A DNA stretch of 34,077 nucleotides from IMG/VR virus record IMGVR_UViG_2547132421_000005; one strand, given 5' to 3'. The translations under genes and the position numbers were made by a program. This document shows positions 8,171 through 20,554 of this stretch, piece by piece. Origin of the DNA: a virus. Taxonomy: Duplodnaviria > Heunggongvirae > Uroviricota > Caudoviricetes. Under the pieces are notes generated by a model. The model ran no database searches. It was not told the origin of the DNA and saw nothing but the letters and a program-made list of their open reading frames with translations. Each line of letters starts with the position of its first letter. The stretch's first letter is position 1.

Positions 8171-8303
8171 TTTTTGGGACTCCTGGCTGATTAAGTATGT
8201 CGATAAGGCGTTTCCATCCGTCACGTAATTTACGGGTGATTCGTTCAAGTAAAGATTCGGAAGGGCAGCCAGCAACAGGCCACCCTGCAATGGCATATTG
8301 CAT
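8139..8303 (-). CDS. cIII: CIII (FtsH inhibitor, stabilises CII), 54 aa
   Basis: My own translation of the minus strand from the ATG at 8303: MQYAIAGWPVAGCPSESLLERITRKLRDG..., matching lambda CIII; not in track (below cutoff). Confidence 0.75.
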   Translation of the reverse strand: MQYAIAGWPVAGCPSESLLERITRKLRDGWKRLIDILNQPGVPKNGSNTYGYPD

Positions 8304-8375
8304 GGTGTGCTCCTTATTTATACATAACGAAAAACGCCTCGAGTGAAGCGTTATTGGTATGCGGTAACGCCGCGC

Positions 8376-13483: not shown

Positions 13484-13924
13484 ATGAAAAAACTAACCTT
13501 TGAAATTCGATCTCCAGCACATCAGCAAAACGCTATTCACGCAGTACAGCAAATCCTTCCAGACCCAACCAAACCAATCGTAGTAACCATTCAGGAACGC
13601 AACCGCAGCTTAGACCAAAACAGGAAGCTATGGGCCTGCTTAGGTGACGTCTCTCGTCAGGTTGAATGGCATGGTCGCTGGCTGGATGCAGAAAGCTGGA
13701 AGTGTGTGTTTACCGCAGCATTAAAGCAGCAGGATGTTGTTCCTAACCTTGCCGGGAATGGCTTTGTGGTAATAGGCCAGTCAACCAGCAGGATGCGTGT
13801 AGGCGAATTTGCGGAGCTATTAGAGCTTATACAGGCATTCGGTACAGAGCGTGGCGTTAAGTGGTCAGACGAAGCGAGACTGGCTCTGGAGTGGAAAGCG
13901 AGATGGGGAGATCGGGCTGCATGA
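13484..13924 (+). CDS. ninB: NinB (Orf-family recombination mediator), 146 aa
   Basis: Internal ATG of track ORF 13466..13924 (MKKLTFEIRSPAHQQNAIHAVQQILPDPTKPIVVTIQERNRSLDQNRKLWA...). Confidence 0.9.
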   Translation: MKKLTFEIRSPAHQQNAIHAVQQILPDPTKPIVVTIQERNRSLDQNRKLWACLGDVSRQVEWHGRWLDAESWKCVFTAALKQQDVVPNLAGNGFVVIGQSTSRMRVGEFAELLELIQAFGTERGVKWSDEARLALEWKARWGDRAA

Positions 13925-14452
13925 CTATCAAATCAAATACGCCAGCACACGACAAGGACTGCTGGCAAACGAACGCCGCTTTGGCTTTTTGATGCACTGG
14001 ATATTGAGTTTGGATTCTGGCTGGATTCGGCAGCGAGCGACAAAAATGCTCTGTGTGCTCACTGGCTAACTGAGGCCGACGACGCGCTCAATTCTGAGTG
14101 GGTAAGCCACGGTGCAATCTGGAATAACCCACCGTACAGCAATATCAGGCCGTGGGTGGAAAAAGCTGCTGAGCAGTGCATACAACAGCAACAGACGGTA
14201 GTTATGCTTGTGCCAGAGGATATGTCAGTCGGATGGTTCAGCAAGGCTCTGGAGAGTGTCGACGAAGTTCGCATTATCACTGATGGACGGATTAATTTTA
14301 TCGAACCATCGACAGGGCTGGAGAAGAAGGGAAACAGCAAAGGCTCCATGCTGCTGATTTGGCGACCGTTCATCAGTCCTCGACGGATGTTTACTACCGT
14401 ATCCAAAGCGGCATTGATGGCGATCGGGCAGGGCGTCAGGAGGGCGGCATGA
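13921..14452 (+). pseudogene. Phage Dam-like DNA N6-adenine methyltransferase, disrupted by a +1 frameshift (apparent 4-bp tandem duplication aacg-aacg at 13968-13975)
   Basis: ATG at 13921 overlaps the ninB stop; frame 1 reads MTIKSNTPAHDKDCWQTNAALAF then stop; frame 2 continues PLWLFDALDIEFGF...AIWNNPPYSNIRPWVEKAAEQ... with the NPPY catalytic motif, to 14452. Removing one aacg copy gives a continuous ...DCWQTPLWLFDALD... reading. Confidence 0.7.
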
Positions 14453-14625
14453 GGCGACAGCGACGAAGTTTCACCGACATCATCTGCGAAAACTGCAAAT
14501 ACCTTCCAACGAAACGCTCCAGAAATAAACGCAAGCCAATCCCAAAAGAATCTGACGTAAAAACCTTCAATTACACAGCTCACCTGTGGGATATCCGGTG
14601 GCTAAGATATCGTGCGAGGAAATGA
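14449..14625 (+). CDS. ninE: NinE, 58 aa
   Basis: Internal ATG of track ORF 14359..14625: [52 protein letters not shown]; start overlaps the Dam-like stop (ATGA). Confidence 0.8.
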
Positions 14626-14969
14626 CAATGGATTATTCACAGTTAAGTGATTTTGAAATTAACAGAATGGTAGGAGACATAATTTTTAAAGGCCTTTGGG
14701 CAAGTAAACCGGAAACATCAGGGAATAACACCAACAAATGGTATTACGGAAATGCTGATACAACTTTTGAGCCATTAAATCATTTGCCTGACTACTGCAA
14801 TGATCCGAGCGCTTCCTGGCCGATTATTGAGAAATACAGGATTTCTATCTTAGACCAGTTAACTGAATGGTGTGTGGATGCAAAAGGCGTAAGCCCAATA
14901 TTTGATACCAGACCTCTCCGCGCCGCCATGATTGTCTTTCTCCTGATGCAGGAGGCCAATAATGCTTAG
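14622..14969 (+). CDS. Hypothetical nin-region protein (NinX/DUF2591-like), about 115 aa
   Basis: Within track ORF 14586..14969; ATG at 14622 overlaps the ninE stop. Start uncertain (14622 or 14628). Confidence 0.5.
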
Positions 14970-15156
14970 CCCATCTCAATCCCTTCAATACCTGAAAGGA
15001 AGCATAGAGCGGGCTTCAATGTGCACAGAGTGGATTCTATCTAGGTTTAGCGCATACAGAAGATTGCCGGTAAAGGGCATGCCAAGCAAGTCGATGCTGC
15101 ATATGCAAAAGAATGCGCGCTGGAAGGTATGGCGAGAACACAGGTTATCTGGCTGA
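14962..15156 (+). CDS. Hypothetical small protein in NinF position, 64 aa
   Basis: Track ORF; the first 18 residues [18 protein letters not shown] resemble lambda NinF but the rest diverges. Confidence 0.35.
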
Positions 15157-15175
15157 AAGAGGGGGTTATTAAGGC

Positions 15176-15537
15176 GTGAATACCTACAGCATCACATTAC
15201 CCTGGCCTCCGAGCAATAATCGCTATTACCGCCATAATCGCGGGCGCACGCACGTCAGCGCAGAGGGGCAGGCATACCGCGATAACGTCGCCCGAATCAT
15301 TAAAAACGCAATGCTGGATATCGGCCTGGCTATGCCTGTGAAAATCCGCATTGAGTGCCACATGCCGGATCGCCGTCGCCGTGACCTGGATAATCTGCAA
15401 AAAGCCGCTTTTGACGCACTCACTAAAGCAGGTTTCTAGCTGGATGATGCTCAGGTCGTTGATTACCGCGTTGTGAAGATGCCTGTTACCAAAGGTGGGA
15501 GGCTGGAACTGACCATCACCGAAATGGGGAATGAATG
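15176..15537 (+). pseudogene. rusA: RusA Holliday-junction resolvase interrupted by an in-frame amber codon (TAG at 15437-15439, codon 88)
   Basis: Track ORF 15176..15439 stops after ...DALTKAGF; the same frame continues [32 protein letters not shown] to a TGA at 15535-15537, which I recognise as the RusA C-terminus. Confidence 0.75.
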
Positions 15538-15675
15538 ATGTTTGAGTTTAATATGGCAGAACTTCTTCGCCACCGCTGGGGGCGTCTGCGCTTATATCGT
15601 TTCCCCGGTTCTGTTTTGACCGATTACCGAATACTGAAGAATTACGCCAAAACACTGACAGGAGCAGGAGTATGA
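15538..15675 (+). CDS. ylcG: YlcG-like small protein, 45 aa (not in track)
   Basis: My own translation: MFEFNMAELLRHRWGRLRLYRFPGSVLTDYRILKNYAKTLTGAGV; ATG overlaps the rusA stop. Hand-read. Confidence 0.55.
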   Translation: MFEFNMAELLRHRWGRLRLYRFPGSVLTDYRILKNYAKTLTGAGV

Positions 15676-15760
15676 AGTCAGAGATAACAATCAACTAATA
15701 CTGTTTTGTTGATTTTTGCTTGTAATTGGCGTTCTGGTCTGAGTTTTGTGGAGTAAGTTG

Positions 15761-16138
15761 ATGCGTGATATTCAGATGGTTCTTGAGCGTTGGGGAGCGT
15801 GGGCGGCTAATAATCATGAAGATGTGACCTGGTCGTCCATTGCCGCCGGTTTTAAGGGATTAATTCCTTCAAAAGTAAAATCTCGCCCACAATGTTGTGA
15901 CGATGACGCGATGATCATTTGCGGGTGCATGGCCCGTCTGAAAAAGAACAACAGCGATTTGCATGATTTATTGGTGGACTATTATGTCGGCGGCATGACT
16001 TTTATGGCGCTTGCACGTAAGCATGGGCGATCTGATTGTTGGGTTGGCAGGATGCTTCAGAAAGCTGAGGGCGTAGTGGAGGGTATGCTGATGGTGTTGG
16101 ATCTCCGATTGGAGATGGATGCTGATTGTTCGAAATAA
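15761..16138 (+). CDS. Late-gene antiterminator Q (phage 82 / DLP12 QuuD type), 125 aa
   Basis: Internal ATG of track ORF 15746..16138: [60 protein letters not shown]; Cys cluster typical of Q82-type proteins. Confidence 0.85.
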
Positions 16139-16150
16139 TTAAAGGAAAAG

Positions 16151-16180
16151 TTGCTGTCTGATTGTCATTAGTCTAACATT
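16151..16180 (+). promoter_or_regulatory. Candidate late promoter pR' / qut region (TTGCTG, 17 bp, TAACAT)
   Basis: Position immediately downstream of Q and about 60 nt upstream of the tR'-like terminator; hexamers read by eye, weak match. Confidence 0.25.
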
Positions 16181-16237
16181 TTAAATGTTGGAATCGCAAC
16201 GTAGTTATTATCATATAACAGCTTGTTTCCTGATTTA

Positions 16238-16266
16238 GCCAGCCTCCCCAAAGGCTGGTCTTTTTC
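16238..16266 (+). terminator. tR'-like intrinsic terminator downstream of Q
   Basis: gccagcc-tccccaaa-ggctggt hairpin followed by ctttttct. Confidence 0.55.
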
Positions 16267-16293
16267 TAATAAGTATTATTTCGGGTAGGGATT

Positions 16294-16818
16294 TTATTGT
16301 TTAACCCATAATAATTCATTGACATTGAATCCCAACTTTTGAGCGGTTCGCACATAGTCTGCTTTTACTTTATCTGGAATAGTTGGGGTCCTTGCCAGAA
16401 TCCATAGGTATTCTCTGTTCGGACCACTGACAAGAGCATACTTATACTCATCATCCAGTTTGATTACATTATAGCCACCATAGAAGGGGCCAAAAAACGA
16501 AACCTTCAATGCTGCAGTTTTAGTATCTCCAGTAAAGTATGCTTTACCTTCGCTCTCGCTCCATTTATTTTTCGTTGGATCGTATCCACGGTTAAGTACA
16601 CGAATCCCTCCGTCGTTCCGTTTTCCATAAGTAGCGCTGACCTGTTCCAGACCACGTTCGAACCGGTTCTCGAGGCGAGCTATTTCATACCATTTTCCGA
16701 GGTAGCGGTTGGCGTCAAAATTTGTAATCGGCTGCACACCTTTAGGTGGTGTCGGGGCCTTACATGCTATAAGAGTGAAAGAGAGTGCAATGCCAGTCAA
16801 CACAGGCCATAACTTCAT
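16294..16818 (-). CDS. blc: Blc-like outer-membrane lipocalin lipoprotein, 174 aa
   Basis: Track ORF; signal peptide plus lipobox LIAC; YLGKWYEIARLENRFERGLEQVSATY is the lipocalin signature of Blc. Confidence 0.85.
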   Translation of the reverse strand: MKLWPVLTGIALSFTLIACKAPTPPKGVQPITNFDANRYLGKWYEIARLENRFERGLEQVSATYGKRNDGGIRVLNRGYDPTKNKWSESEGKAYFTGDTKTAALKVSFFGPFYGGYNVIKLDDEYKYALVSGPNREYLWILARTPTIPDKVKADYVRTAQKLGFNVNELLWVKQ

Positions 16819-17010
16819 AATAAATCCTGTACTTTTGATAGTTGAGAGTAAGTATGAAAGATAGATGATTACGACCGATCACTTAAAGAACTTTCATACT
16901 ATATTAGGAATAGTCCATAACAGAAAAATTGTCAGTGATGACGCCAGAAAGGCAATTTATTCCGTGCACTACACAGTTTATGTGTTAATGAATTAGTCAA
17001 GGGGGAGAAT

Positions 17011-17970
17011 ATGATAAAAAAACCTGTGATTGGAATCAGCGGTTGTTTGGCCGGTTCTGCTGTTCGTTTTGATGGTGGTCACAAAAGAGCTGACTTTTTA
17101 ATGGACAAATTAGTGGAATGGGTAACATTCAGACCAGTATGTCCGGAAATGGCTATAGGGCTGCCAGTTCCGCGTCCTGCTCTACGTCTTGTGCGCTCGA
17201 TGCAAGGAAATATACGGATGTGTTTCAGCCACGACCAGAATGAGGATGTGACAGAGAGAATGACAGAGTTTAGTCGTTCTTATATGGACAAATTAAAGGA
17301 TGTATCGGGGTTTGTGGTTTGTGCTAAATCTCCCAGCTGTGGCATGGAGCGCGTGCGTGTCTATGATGAAAATGGTAATCGAGGTCGTAAAGATGGAGTG
17401 GGACTATTTACGAGCACTTTGATGGAAAAGTTTTCCTGGCTACCGGTTGAAGAGGATGGGCGATTACATGATCCAGTGCTTCGTGAGAATTTTGTTGAAA
17501 GAGTTTTTGCTTTGCATGAGCTCAATCACCTTTACAAGGAGAAATTATCAAGAAGAGAGTTATTAGCTTTTCATAGTCGTTATAAGCTTCAGTTGTTGGC
17601 GCATAGTCAGGCAGGCTATAAAGATATGGGACCATTTGTGGCTGCAATACACGAGTGGGCGGACCTTGAATCATACTTTGAGGTGTATCGTGATAAGCTG
17701 ATGGCGATTCTCAGAAAACCTGCATCACGTAAAAATCACACGAATGTGCTGATGCATATACAGGGGTATTTTAGTAACTACTTAAGTACACGCCAGCGTA
17801 AAGAGTTGAGCGAGGTTATACTTAACTATCGTTCTGGCACATTACCTCTTCTTGCGCCGTTGACTCTGCTGAAGCATTATCTGGGTGAGTATCCTAATGA
17901 TTACTTGCTTACACAGAATTACTTCGATCCCTATCCGGACGAACTGGCTCTAAGACTGATGGTAAATTAA
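17011..17970 (+). CDS. DUF523-DUF1722 fusion protein (TudS/RudS-like thiouracil/4-thiouridine desulfidase family), 319 aa
   Basis: Track ORF; N-terminal Cys-rich DUF523-like region (GISGCLAG...CPE...SPSCG) and YbgA-like C-terminal half; family assignment from memory. Confidence 0.7.
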   Translation: MIKKPVIGISGCLAGSAVRFDGGHKRADFLMDKLVEWVTFRPVCPEMAIGLPVPRPALRLVRSMQGNIRMCFSHDQNEDVTERMTEFSRSYMDKLKDVSGFVVCAKSPSCGMERVRVYDENGNRGRKDGVGLFTSTLMEKFSWLPVEEDGRLHDPVLRENFVERVFALHELNHLYKEKLSRRELLAFHSRYKLQLLAHSQAGYKDMGPFVAAIHEWADLESYFEVYRDKLMAILRKPASRKNHTNVLMHIQGYFSNYLSTRQRKELSEVILNYRSGTLPLLAPLTLLKHYLGEYPNDYLLTQNYFDPYPDELALRLMVN

Positions 17971-18312
17971 TTGTATGCGATATCATCCAAAAGGATGAGT
18001 TCCTGCATGCAGGATATTTACAATCGTAAAAACTACACTATGATACCCAGAGTGTCAGTTTGTATAAAAACTCTGTTTACGCTGAAGAAACAATTGAGAT
18101 GCAACTTAAAGTTGGTAAACATGCCAGTCAAAATATATAATATTATGATTCCACGCAGCTATATATAATATAACAGATTGGTTTAATAATTTGTCTTTGT
18201 GAGTTAAATACATAATTTTATACTTGTGATGCAATGAAATTTTCCTTATTGTTGAACTGGCGAATATTGATTTTCCACCTATACTTACCTGGTGTAACCC
18301 CAATGATATCAG

Positions 18313-19053
18313 GTGGATAATATGCCATACATATGTTCTATCATTTTGGTGTTGAACTCGTTTGATGTCCGAATCGGTAAAGAAGATATTTTGTTTAAAA
18401 AAGGAAGTGCTGTTCTCATTGATTACAATTTAAAAGATTTTTTTTCATCAAATATAGATCATGTAATGATCGTAGATGTTGAAGAGAAAACAGTTAATGA
18501 TTTCTTTAAAAGCAACACACTCTCACCTTTTTCTGTAAGAAGGTTTTATCCGGCATACTTGATGGTGGAATGTGAAGATTTTTCATTGTTAAAGAACTTG
18601 ATTGCATGCTTGAATTGTGATGGCAGAACTGTGGATTTTGTTAGAAATCAAATATCACTTGCATGTCTTGCTATCTTATCTTCAGAGAAAATAGTGCAAA
18701 GTTTTTTATTTGGATGTCTTAATAGTTTAGGAAGTAAAGTTAAGGCTATTATTCACACGGATATATCTGCAGCATGGAGACTTTGTGATATATCTTCAAG
18801 ACTGTATCTGAGTGAAAGTCTGTTAAAAAGAAAATTAAAGCACGAAGGCTTATCATTTAGTAAGTTAATTCTTGAAGAGCGAATGGTGATGGCGGAAAGG
18901 TTATTAAGCTACAATTTATATTCTGTTGGAAAAGTTGCTGAGATATGCGGTTATGAAAACACGTCATATTTTGTAAGTGTTTTCAGAAGGTATTTTGGTG
19001 TTCCTCCCCATCAATATTCATCAAGATTTTTTTTAGAAAAAGACATGATGTAA
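18313..19053 (+). CDS. AraC-family transcriptional regulator (AppY/EnvY-like), 246 aa
   Basis: Track ORF; C-terminal AraC HTH (LSESLLKRKLKHEGLSFSKLILEERMVMAERLL...VGKVAEICGYENTSYFVSVFRRYFGVPPHQY); strongly AT-rich. Confidence 0.8.
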   Translation: MDNMPYICSIILVLNSFDVRIGKEDILFKKGSAVLIDYNLKDFFSSNIDHVMIVDVEEKTVNDFFKSNTLSPFSVRRFYPAYLMVECEDFSLLKNLIACLNCDGRTVDFVRNQISLACLAILSSEKIVQSFLFGCLNSLGSKVKAIIHTDISAAWRLCDISSRLYLSESLLKRKLKHEGLSFSKLILEERMVMAERLLSYNLYSVGKVAEICGYENTSYFVSVFRRYFGVPPHQYSSRFFLEKDMM

Positions 19054-19114
19054 CGTGATGCGTTTTAATGATTTTGTAATTTTCGTATTTGATAATTGTA
19101 TGATGCTTTCAGCT

Positions 19115-19146
19115 ACGCCAGAATAATCGCGGCGTTTTTCTTTTTG
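19115..19146 (+). terminator. Candidate terminator after the AraC-family gene
   Basis: acgcc-agaataatcgc-ggcgt hairpin (5-bp stem) followed by ttttctttttg; weak stem. Confidence 0.3.
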
Positions 19147-19240
19147 AATAGATGTTCAAGCCTTACGCTAATGTAACTTCTATACCTTTCCTCTTCGTTC
19201 CGAACCGTGTACACCATCCGTTATTTGCGGAGGTGAGGCT

Positions 19241-19296
19241 ATGAAATCCATGGATAAGTTAACAACGGGTGTCGCCTATGGCACCTCAGCAGGTAG
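19241..19296 (+). pseudogene. 5' fragment (18 codons) of a class II holin S (S21/EssD-like), truncated by IS3
   Basis: GGAGGTGAGG RBS, then MKSMDKLTTGVAYGTSAG with the dual-start MKSM motif, directly followed by the IS3 left inverted repeat at 19297. Hand-read. Confidence 0.6.
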
Positions 19297-19361
19297 TGAT
19301 CTTACCCAGCAATAGTGGACACGCGGCTAAGTGAGTAAACTCTCAGTCAGAGGTGACTCAC

Positions 19362-19661
19362 ATGACAAAAACAGTATCAACCAGTAAAAAACCCCGTAAA
19401 CAGCATTCGCCTGAATTTCGCAGTGAAGCCCTGAAGCTTGCTGAACGCATCGGTGTTACTGCCGCAGCCCGTGAACTCAGCCTGTATGAATCACAGCTCT
19501 ACAACTGGCGCAGTAAACAGCAAAATCAGCAGACGTCTTCTGAACGTGAACTGGAGATGTCTACCGAGATTGCACGTCTCAAACGCCAGCTGGCAGAACG
19601 GGATGAAGAGCTGGCTATCCTCCAAAAGGCCGCGACATACTTCGCGAAGCGCCTGAAATGA
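19362..19661 (+). CDS. insE: IS3 transposase OrfA (InsE), 99 aa
   Basis: Track ORF 19353..19661; [54 protein letters not shown]. Confidence 0.9.
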
Positions 19662-20524
19662 AGTATGTCTTTATTGAAAAACATCAGGCTGAGTTCAGCA
19701 TCAAAGCAATGTGCCGCGTGCTCCGGGTGGCCCGCAGCGGCTGGTATACGTGGTGTCAGCGGCGGACAAGGATAAGCACGCGTCAGCAGTTCCGCCAACA
19801 CTGCGACAGCGTTGTCCTCGCGGCTTTTACCCGGTCAAAACAGCGTTACGGTGCCCCACGCCTGACGGATGAACTGCGTGCTCAGGGTTACCCCTTTAAC
19901 GTAAAAACCGTGGCGGCAAGCCTGCGCCGTCAGGGACTGAGGGCAAAGGCCTCCCGGAAGTTCAGCCCGGTCAGCTACCGCGCACACGGCCTGCCTGTGT
20001 CAGAAAATCTGTTGGAGCAGGATTTTTACGCCAGTGGCCCGAACCAGAAGTGGGCAGGAGACATCACGTACTTACGTACAGATGAAGGCTGGCTGTATCT
20101 GGCAGTGGTCATTGACCTGTGGTCACGTGCCGTTATTGGCTGGTCAATGTCGCCACGCATGACGGCGCAACTGGCCTGCGATGCCCTGCAGATGGCGCTG
20201 TGGCGGCGTAAGAGGCCCCGGAACGTTATCGTTCACACGGACCGTGGAGGCCAGTACTGTTCAGCAGATTATCAGGCGCAACTGAAGCGGCATAATCTGC
20301 GTGGAAGTATGAGCGCAAAAGGTTGCTGCTACGATAATGCCTGCGTGGAAAGCTTCTTTCATTCGCTGAAAGTGGAATGTATCCATGGAGAACACTTTAT
20401 CAGCCGGGAAATAATGCGGGCAACGGTATTTAATTATATCGAATGTGATTACAATCGGTGGCGGCGGCACAGTTGGTGTGGCGGCCTCAGTCCGGAACAA
20501 TTTGAAAACCAGAACCTCGCTTAG
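19658..20524 (+). CDS. insF: IS3 transposase OrfB (InsF; normally made as an OrfAB frameshift fusion), 288 aa
   Basis: Track ORF; DDE integrase-core region ([31 protein letters not shown]...HTDRGGQY...). Confidence 0.9.
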
Positions 20525-20554
20525 GCCTGTGTCCATATTACGTGGGTAGGATCA

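Follow-up and report, generated by a model that had tools for sequence, protein, structure and literature searches.

Structural work on Blc, the outer-membrane lipocalin of Escherichia coli, has established that this protein binds lysophospholipid or fatty acid. RudS was defined as a fusion of the TudS and DUF1722 domains that removes 4-thiouridine (s4U) from transfer RNA (tRNA), and every RudS variant tested, RudS_vir included, lowered tRNA s4U when overexpressed in E. coli, in which RudS expression also diminished the ultraviolet A (UVA) growth delay (Jamontas et al. 2024, PMC11417400). Prophages moreover carry AraC-like regulators, of which PatE, PsrB and AppY activate the gadE/hdeA acid-resistance genes (PMC10877973, PMC10057817), and blc has been listed as a moron in more than 50% of 19 infant-gut lambda phages (Mathieu et al. 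2020, PMC6969025). Here, we analysed a 34,077-nucleotide stretch of viral DNA (IMG/VR record IMGVR_UViG_2547132421_000005, Caudoviricetes; the whole stretch is called the window below), in which a Blc-type lipocalin gene, a rudS gene and a PatE-like regulator gene lie together between the late antiterminator gene Q and the holin gene S. The explanation that we favour, and that taken as a whole we regard as likely, is that lambda-like coliphages (Jouyvirus and Rac-type prophages) carry this cassette as a conserved cargo (moron), set between Q with its tR'-like terminator and the lysis genes. The island, its genes and its borders are the following.

16294-19053, cargo island: three intact genes within the region 16140-19240, between Q plus the tR'-like terminator and the holin start at 19241
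15761-16138, plus strand, late antiterminator Q (RefSeq start; the open reading frame (ORF) call is 15746-16138), PF06530 Phage_antitermQ at 2.5e-51, upstream border
16238-16259, plus strand, GC-rich hairpin with a T-run to 16265, taken as a tR'-like intrinsic terminator from its place downstream of Q
16294-16818, minus strand, Blc-type outer-membrane lipocalin lipoprotein, 174 amino acids (aa), PF08212 Lipocalin_2 at 7e-44
17011-17970, plus strand, RudS, a TudS(DUF523)-DUF1722 fusion of 319 aa, PF04463 and PF08349
18322-19053, plus strand, PatE-like AraC/XylS-family regulator, 243 aa, AT-rich; ATG 18322 is the RefSeq start and GTG 18313 is also open
19241-19296, plus strand, holin S remnant of ~18 codons reading MKSMDKLTTGVAYGTSAG(S), downstream border of the cargo site

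The carriage of this cassette by phages is directly observed. The 3.1-kb region matches 12 sequenced phages, namely IdasGreatGrand, which is 99.2% identical over the region, and eleven infant-gut lambda-like Jouyvirus phages at ~89%. In the linear genomes of Lambda_2E9, 1H12 and IdasGreatGrand, the gene order is Q, lipocalin (minus strand), DUF523-DUF1722, AraC-family gene, holin, endolysin and Rz, and the cargo position between Q and S, already put forward in the original prediction made from the letters of the window, is thus found in packaged phage genomes. The three ORFs of the window lie as that prediction had placed them, and the holin ATG (19241) directly follows the end of the region that it had delimited. 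The same arrangement was found in 80 IMG/VR contigs, always between Q and S and with a fixed spacing (lipocalin 193 bp upstream of RudS, regulator start ~1.3 kb and holin start ~2.2 kb past the RudS start), and the Q allele ahead of the cassette is 97-100% identical in 78 of the 79 IMG/VR loci reaching that far, the remaining one (L131) showing only 77%. Among 5,426 complete E. coli genomes, the region was matched in 1,156, with at least 80% of the island covered in 992; the lipocalin-RudS part occurs in 1,151 and the regulator part in 1,033, and an apparently intact prophage copy of RudS is present in 1,047-1,151 of them, i.e., in about a fifth. The co-occurrence of the three genes in other prophages, which had been proposed as a check, therefore extends to the 80 contigs and to ~1,000 E. 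coli genomes. That the region represents host chromosomal DNA moved beside phage genes by a rearrangement, a scenario already raised along with the original prediction, appears extremely improbable: close chromosomal relatives of the lipocalin-RudS pair do exist in other Enterobacteriaceae, but they are only 66-81% identical, whereas every copy with 89-100% identity is flanked by Q and S in a phage or prophage, the linear packaged genomes included, and the chromosome of E. coli K-12 holds only ybgA and a 60% identical blc.

The cassette also behaves as a moron does, as extra genes between conserved phage genes that are variable among related phages. Indeed, the regulator is absent or partial in some cassette copies, RudS or the lipocalin is disrupted by insertion sequence (IS) elements in some strains, and the Q-to-holin interval of the EDL933 prophages holds other cargo. 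The chromosomal position of the cassette varies, and one genome may hold as many as three copies. All three cargo proteins fall in PHROGs families, each of which is labelled 'unknown function'. Note that two contigs of a 'Candidatus Nanosynbacter' metagenome-assembled genome (L062 and L067) hold the lipocalin, RudS and the regulator at 94-99% identity to the window; these contigs are almost certainly mis-binned E. coli prophage DNA.

The RudS assignment is supported along the full length of the protein. The Pfam profile PF04463 2-thiour_desulf (DUF523) is matched completely (profile positions 1-141 of 141) by residues 7-149 at 4.5e-40, and PF08349 DUF1722 is matched by residues 192-309 of the same polypeptide at 5.8e-41. 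The protein is 93.4% identical (298 of 319 residues) to RudS_vir, which is gp66 of phage 1H12, and retains Cys12, Cys44 and Cys110, the cluster ligands named for RudS_vir and RudS_ST (PMC11417400); the RudS/TudS link drawn in the original prediction is well founded in this respect. In addition, 60 RudS sequences from phages and enterobacteria all have C12, C44, E46, C104, S107, S109 and C110, E46 being the catalytic Glu beside the second Cys ligand, and the N-terminal part can be aligned with the TudS crystal structure 6z92 over Cys10/Cys43/Glu45. By all the sequence-level features of the family, the product of 17011-17970 is a RudS, predicted to act as a [4Fe-4S] tRNA 4-thiouridine desulfidase. 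E. coli has been said to lack RudS, in the study that defined the enzyme (PMC11417400) and likewise in other papers and reviews on tRNA modification. This statement is true only for laboratory strains, since K-12 has none and the B lineage has a 49-codon stump. As an example, in E. coli B95.deltaA of the B lineage (L156, 4492-7081), a Qin-like prophage carries Q, an intact lipocalin gene and a RudS gene cut by an IS3 element after 49 codons, so that this common expression host has the lipocalin moron and no working RudS.

For the lipocalin, the NCBIfam Blc subfamily model NF007786 gave 316.1 bits (cut-off 267) and the PDB Blc structure 3mbt was matched at 3.5e-69. Its N-terminus, MKLWPVLTGIALSFTLIAC19-K, read by eye from the sequence, ends in a lipobox L-I-A-C19 followed by Lys, with no Asp at +2. 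The protein is 59.8% identical to K-12 Blc, against ~80% to the lipocalins that lie beside chromosomal RudS, and on these comparisons it is best classed as a RudS-linked paralogue, not as an orthologue of the chromosomal blc next to ampC. The lipocalin of the locus is identical to WP_000780581.1, a protein quantified by proteomics in 2026 in a carbapenem-resistant clinical strain, in which it rose 2.0-fold and 3.0-fold within 15 min of meropenem, accompanied by envelope-stress lipoproteins (PMC13459554). Two further literature leads were set aside: the lipocalin of a prophage-hybridisation preprint is mouse lipocalin-2, and the phiv142-3 orf6 and orf10 primers gave no match to the cassette locus.

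A scan for chromosomal RudS in one genome per species emphasized where the first two genes come from. Chromosomal RudS proteins, 66-76% identical to that of the phage, occur in Citrobacter, Enterobacter, Leclercia, Kluyvera and relatives, and 43 of the 62 enterobacterial loci have, on the strand opposite to RudS and at most 8 kb upstream of it, a lipocalin that shares ~80% identity with that of the phage. The usual layout, seen in 36 loci, consists of the lipocalin (minus strand), an MlrA-like MerR regulator, a transthyretin-family gene and RudS, as in Enterobacter cloacae (L032, 6021-8960) and 35 similar loci; the MlrA-like regulator comprises MerR_1, MlrA_helical and MlrA_C, and the transthyretin/HIUase-family protein has an N-terminal signal-like segment. 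This layout suggests that, in these species, a single regulon includes the chromosomal lipocalin and RudS. In Citrobacter sedlakii and Citrobacter sp. JGM124, the lipocalin directly adjoins RudS, as it does in the phage, and a PatE-like AraC-family gene was found in none of the 62 chromosomal RudS loci. The phage lipocalin-RudS spacer is not alignable with the Citrobacter chromosomal spacer, and the idea of a regulatory spacer common to the phage and Citrobacter pairs was therefore rejected. The simplest reading of these results is that the lipocalin-RudS pair was captured as a unit from an enterobacterial chromosome and that the AT-rich regulator was acquired separately.

The third gene encodes a protein with a C-terminal double helix-turn-helix (HTH), matched by PF12833 HTH_18 at 1.1e-14 (residues 161-237) and by PF00165 HTH_AraC at 2.1e-11, and the Pfam profile search thereby upholds the lipocalin, DUF523-DUF1722 and AraC assignments alike. 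The resemblance to AppY/EnvY that had been proposed for this regulator has to be revised, since identity to these K-12 proteins is only ~30% (AppY 31.8%, EnvY 29.4%, and YdeO 32%); the nearest characterised relative is PatE of EDL933 (the Z0321 product, prophage CP-933H), with 53.6% over 235 of 243 aa (E-value 9e-87). Taken by domain, identity to PatE is 71% in the C-terminal DNA-binding part and 40% in the N-terminal part. The best NCBIfam model was YdeO, with 127 bits, far under its cut-off of 348. These comparisons place the regulator in what would be a separate new clade within the PatE/YdeO/AppY group. The gene was rightly described as strongly AT-rich: together with its upstream spacer it has 32% GC, against 43-44% for the lipocalin and RudS genes and 46.6% for the window, and it thus lies in AT-rich DNA on a lambdoid prophage. 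In a comparable position, a 237-aa AraC-like gene of EDL933 (L155, 25274-25987; chromosome 1,905,274-1,905,987), 39.6% identical to the window regulator, sits between a Q-like gene and the tRNA genes plus holin of a prophage of enterohaemorrhagic E. coli (EHEC). This gene is probably PsrB, and AraC-like cargo in the Q-to-holin interval appears to be a recurring theme. Of the EDL933 stretches searched for PsrA/PsrB, two of 50 kb and one of 25 kb held no AraC-like gene; the 237-aa gene came from a third 50-kb stretch.

The co-occurrence of the regulator with blc-rudS in ~1,000 genomes could mean that it acts locally, on genes of the cassette or the phage such as the blc/rudS divergent promoter, and not on host acid resistance; a replacement is plausible in this respect, as the MlrA-like regulator found between the chromosomal lipocalin and RudS is missing in the phage. 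We nevertheless consider a local role unlikely, given that copies with a frameshifted or missing regulator still have intact, identical blc and rudS genes, and that the DNA-binding domain is 71% identical to that of PatE, whose known targets are host genes. Our preferred reading remains that the regulator would act on host stress genes. Its gene contains a feature that appears frameshift-prone:

18438-18445, plus strand, T8 homopolymer within regulator codons 39-42, a hot-spot for frameshifts; the reading frame is kept in the window

Among 534 complete E. coli genomes with the window allele, the tract is exactly T7, i.e., frameshifted, in 232 and exactly T8 in 242; a T7 copy is labelled 'frameshifted' by RefSeq, and the adjoining lipocalin and RudS genes are intact. 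In the IMG/VR copies, T8 was counted 44 times, T7 5 times, T6 twice and T9 once. The non-T8 copies form one T7/T6 clade and at least three singletons with T8 as the nearest haplotype, sequencing error being possible for the singletons. The tract could represent a site of frequent mutation or a switch that turns the regulator on and off.

Comparison of two phage allele lineages (window and Lambda_2E9) gave ratios of nonsynonymous to synonymous substitution rates (dN/dS) of 0.065 for the lipocalin, 0.11 for RudS and 0.25 for the regulator, with 0.095 for Q; all three cargo genes are therefore under purifying selection. This evidence has to be set against the state of the prophage in the window, to which the next feature belongs:

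19297-20554, plus strand, IS3 insertion with transposase domains and RefSeq IS3 annotation, outside the cassette

The left end of this IS3 element (19297) truncates the holin, the endolysin and most of Rz are deleted, and an Rz/Rz1 remnant is followed by trkG. The holin as downstream border, as originally proposed, stands in that its start codon is found at 19241 and its remnant MKSMDKLTTGVAYGTSAG(S) matches the holins of Lambda_2E9 and IdasGreatGrand; it falls short in that only ~18 codons are left. Because IS3 truncates the holin, the window prophage is lysis-defective and cannot lyse its host. Further decay is seen at 13921-15538, where the rusA ORF (15176-15439) ends after 87 aa; at the matching locus of E. 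coli PSJ-14, RefSeq annotates rusA with an 'internal stop', an N6-adenine methyltransferase as frameshifted and a DUF1364 gene as partial. The island itself is 100% identical to that of PSJ-14 and many other strains, and the early prophage region is unlike that of PSJ-14, where extra IS1 and IS66 insertions sit. One could thus regard the cargo genes as neutral or decaying passengers of a defective prophage, with its IS3 in the holin, internal stop in rusA and frameshifted methylase, all the more so as the regulator is often frameshifted and IS elements break RudS or the lipocalin in some strains. Such a reading is very unlikely in our view, as all three ORFs are intact in the window, dN/dS between phage lineages is 0.07-0.25, viable phages carry the cassette and the lipocalin protein has been detected.

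The other signals of the window concern its RNA and regulatory elements. The sole Rfam match is a Lambda_thermo element (cIII thermoregulator) at 8258-8316 on the minus strand, with 88.5 bits; Rfam and tRNA scans revealed no RNA genes in the island, and PADLOC gave no matches to defence systems. RefSeq labels the Q ORF as 'antiterminator Q family protein'. Between and around the cargo genes, three intergenic features were considered:

16819-17010, no strand, lipocalin-RudS divergent intergenic region, 192 bp, nearly identical among phage alleles
18001-18014, no strand, 14-bp perfect palindrome tcctgcatgcagga, 30 nucleotides past the RudS stop codon
18017-18044, plus strand, candidate sigma-70-like promoter TTTACA-N16-TATGAT for the regulator gene, score 10/12, one of the two best

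The divergent region had been expected to hold promoters, an expectation that found no support here: it contains one weak promoter-like match (16842-16869, plus strand) that is not above chance, consensus promoter matches occurring at the frequency of shuffled sequence. The block that holds TTTACA-N16-TATGAT is invariant across alleles save one spacer base, although the RudS-regulator spacer averages 74% identity. The 14-bp palindrome near 18000 is present as reported; the role of operator for the regulator that had been suggested for it is unlikely, since its sequence differs between alleles and only its inverted-repeat character is kept. Indeed, in the 2E9/1H12 allele it is replaced by a different inverted repeat, TTCTC-CTTA-GAGAA, and because the repeat is kept and the sequence replaced, the palindrome appears more fitting for a hairpin than for a sequence-specific protein operator.

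A terminator scan of 15700-19400 found the hairpin at 16238-16259 as the sole terminator-like site, and none after any cargo gene. With no strong terminator between tR' and the holin, late transcripts antiterminated by Q would be expected to run through RudS and the regulator in sense and through the lipocalin in antisense. This arrangement raises the possibility that RudS, and perhaps the regulator, serve the phage: after induction by ultraviolet (UV) light, erasure of s4U would keep cross-linked tRNA, translation arrest and the stringent response from blocking late protein synthesis. The placement of RudS and the regulator on the late strand between tR' and S, the effect of RudS on the UVA growth delay of E. 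coli (PMC11417400) and the tight tie of the cassette to one Q allele and one holin family all point in this direction. We regard a benefit to the phage as conceivable, though rather doubtful, because late transcription runs antisense through the lipocalin gene, late expression may miss the moment for altering the tRNA pool, RudS is kept intact in lysis-defective prophages such as that of the window, and the conserved promoter-like block ahead of the regulator suggests independent expression.

As to the targets of the regulator, the promoters and the benefit to host or phage, we infer the following scheme. The lipocalin would be a lipoprotein tethered to the outer membrane, the site at which lipocalins of the Blc type bind lysophospholipids and fatty acids, and it would act within the envelope-stress response. 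The TudS domain of RudS, with its putative [4Fe-4S] cluster on Cys12/Cys44/Cys110, would strip sulfur from 4-thiouridine at position 8 of tRNA, the DUF1722 domain presumably holding the tRNA, and RudS would thus lower the tRNA photosensor responsible for the near-UV growth delay. The regulator may activate host stress genes silenced by H-NS, most likely gadE/hdeA, to judge from its PatE-type relatives. Expression in the lysogen would require promoters belonging to the cargo genes themselves; once the prophage is induced, the late transcript antiterminated by Q would include RudS and the regulator as well. The three genes might even form a joint 'sunlight and gut-passage' conversion module, in which RudS erases s4U and removes both the near-UV growth delay and the stringent arrest, letting the SOS response and phage late protein synthesis proceed after solar UV, the lipocalin repairs photo-oxidised envelope lipids, and the regulator, switched by T8 slippage, tunes acid resistance. 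We hold this more ambitious version to be improbable.

Several observations weigh against the scheme and should be considered together. For the window prophage, the IS3 element in S makes any lytic-cycle role moot. Promoter-like matches were no more frequent than in shuffled sequence (13 vs 11.9), and expression of RudS or the regulator in a natural lysogen was not found in the searchable literature, the lipocalin proteomics being the sole direct expression evidence. Even these data could mix in peptides shared with chromosomal Blc (60% identity), and some prophage proteins also rose in the meropenem experiment (PMC13459554). Although its protein levels were good, RudS_vir was outperformed by the Pseudomonas and Salmonella enzymes (PMC11417400). 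Finally, the regulator is frameshifted in ~43% of the carriers of its allele and is therefore often dispensable.

Regarding novelty, each part of the cassette belongs to a described kind and the cassette is common, occurring in roughly one in five sequenced E. coli. The claim that the combination is undescribed holds for the lipocalin-RudS-regulator trio as a unit, which was not found in the searchable literature, and does not hold for its parts, which have been described (PMC11417400, PMC6969025). What is new here is the chromosomal origin of the lipocalin-RudS pair, the frameshift-prone T tract and the presence of RudS in natural E. coli. Consequences may follow at several levels. Whether a natural E. 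coli isolate carries this prophage may influence its tRNA s4U content, its near-UV growth delay and its stringent signalling. A whole chromosomal stress neighbourhood, made of a lipocalin and RudS, can be captured by phages as one piece, and the regulator would be another uncharacterised member of the prophage AraC regulators that rewire acid resistance. Our understanding of such cargo islands as a class is unchanged by these findings.

Altogether, the locus can be situated among known systems gene by gene. With RudS_vir (1H12 gp66, H3V29_gp66), the window RudS shares the TudS-DUF1722 fusion, the length of 319 aa, Cys12/Cys44/Cys110 and a cassette between Q and holin; it differs by 21 substitutions and by its residence in a lysis-defective chromosomal prophage, where the allele is known here by its sequence. 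With E. coli Blc (PDB 1qwd, 2aco, 3mbt), the phage lipocalin shares the Lipocalin_2 fold, a lipoprotein signal with the lipobox Cys and the same length, whereas its 59.8% identity and its location away from ampC set it in a second lineage (~80% identical) that adjoins RudS in Enterobacter, Leclercia and Citrobacter. As a pair, the two genes recall the Enterobacter-type blc2/mlrA-like/transthyretin-like/rudS cluster (cf. ORF242-ORF319 of Salmonella pathogenicity island 2), in which the lipocalin also lies upstream of RudS on the opposite strand, and still more the adjacent pairs of Citrobacter, with a spacer of ~190-230 bp compared to 192 bp in the phage. In contrast to the chromosomal cluster, the phage version is without the MlrA-like MerR regulator and the transthyretin-like gene, its intergenic DNA is non-homologous, and a PatE-like regulator has been added. 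AppY, YdeO and EnvY are distant from this regulator (29-32% identity), and PsrA/PsrB of EHEC O157:H7 offer a likely parallel in position, with a probable PsrB in the Q-to-holin interval of an EDL933 prophage. PatE is closest in kind: it too is encoded by an AT-rich prophage gene, has ~245 aa and carries a double HTH at its C-terminus, and its identity to the window protein is 54% along the whole length, rising to 71% across the DNA-binding domain; the window regulator nevertheless stands in a clade of its own, 49-56% identical to the PatE-clade proteins and with an N-terminal domain at 40%.

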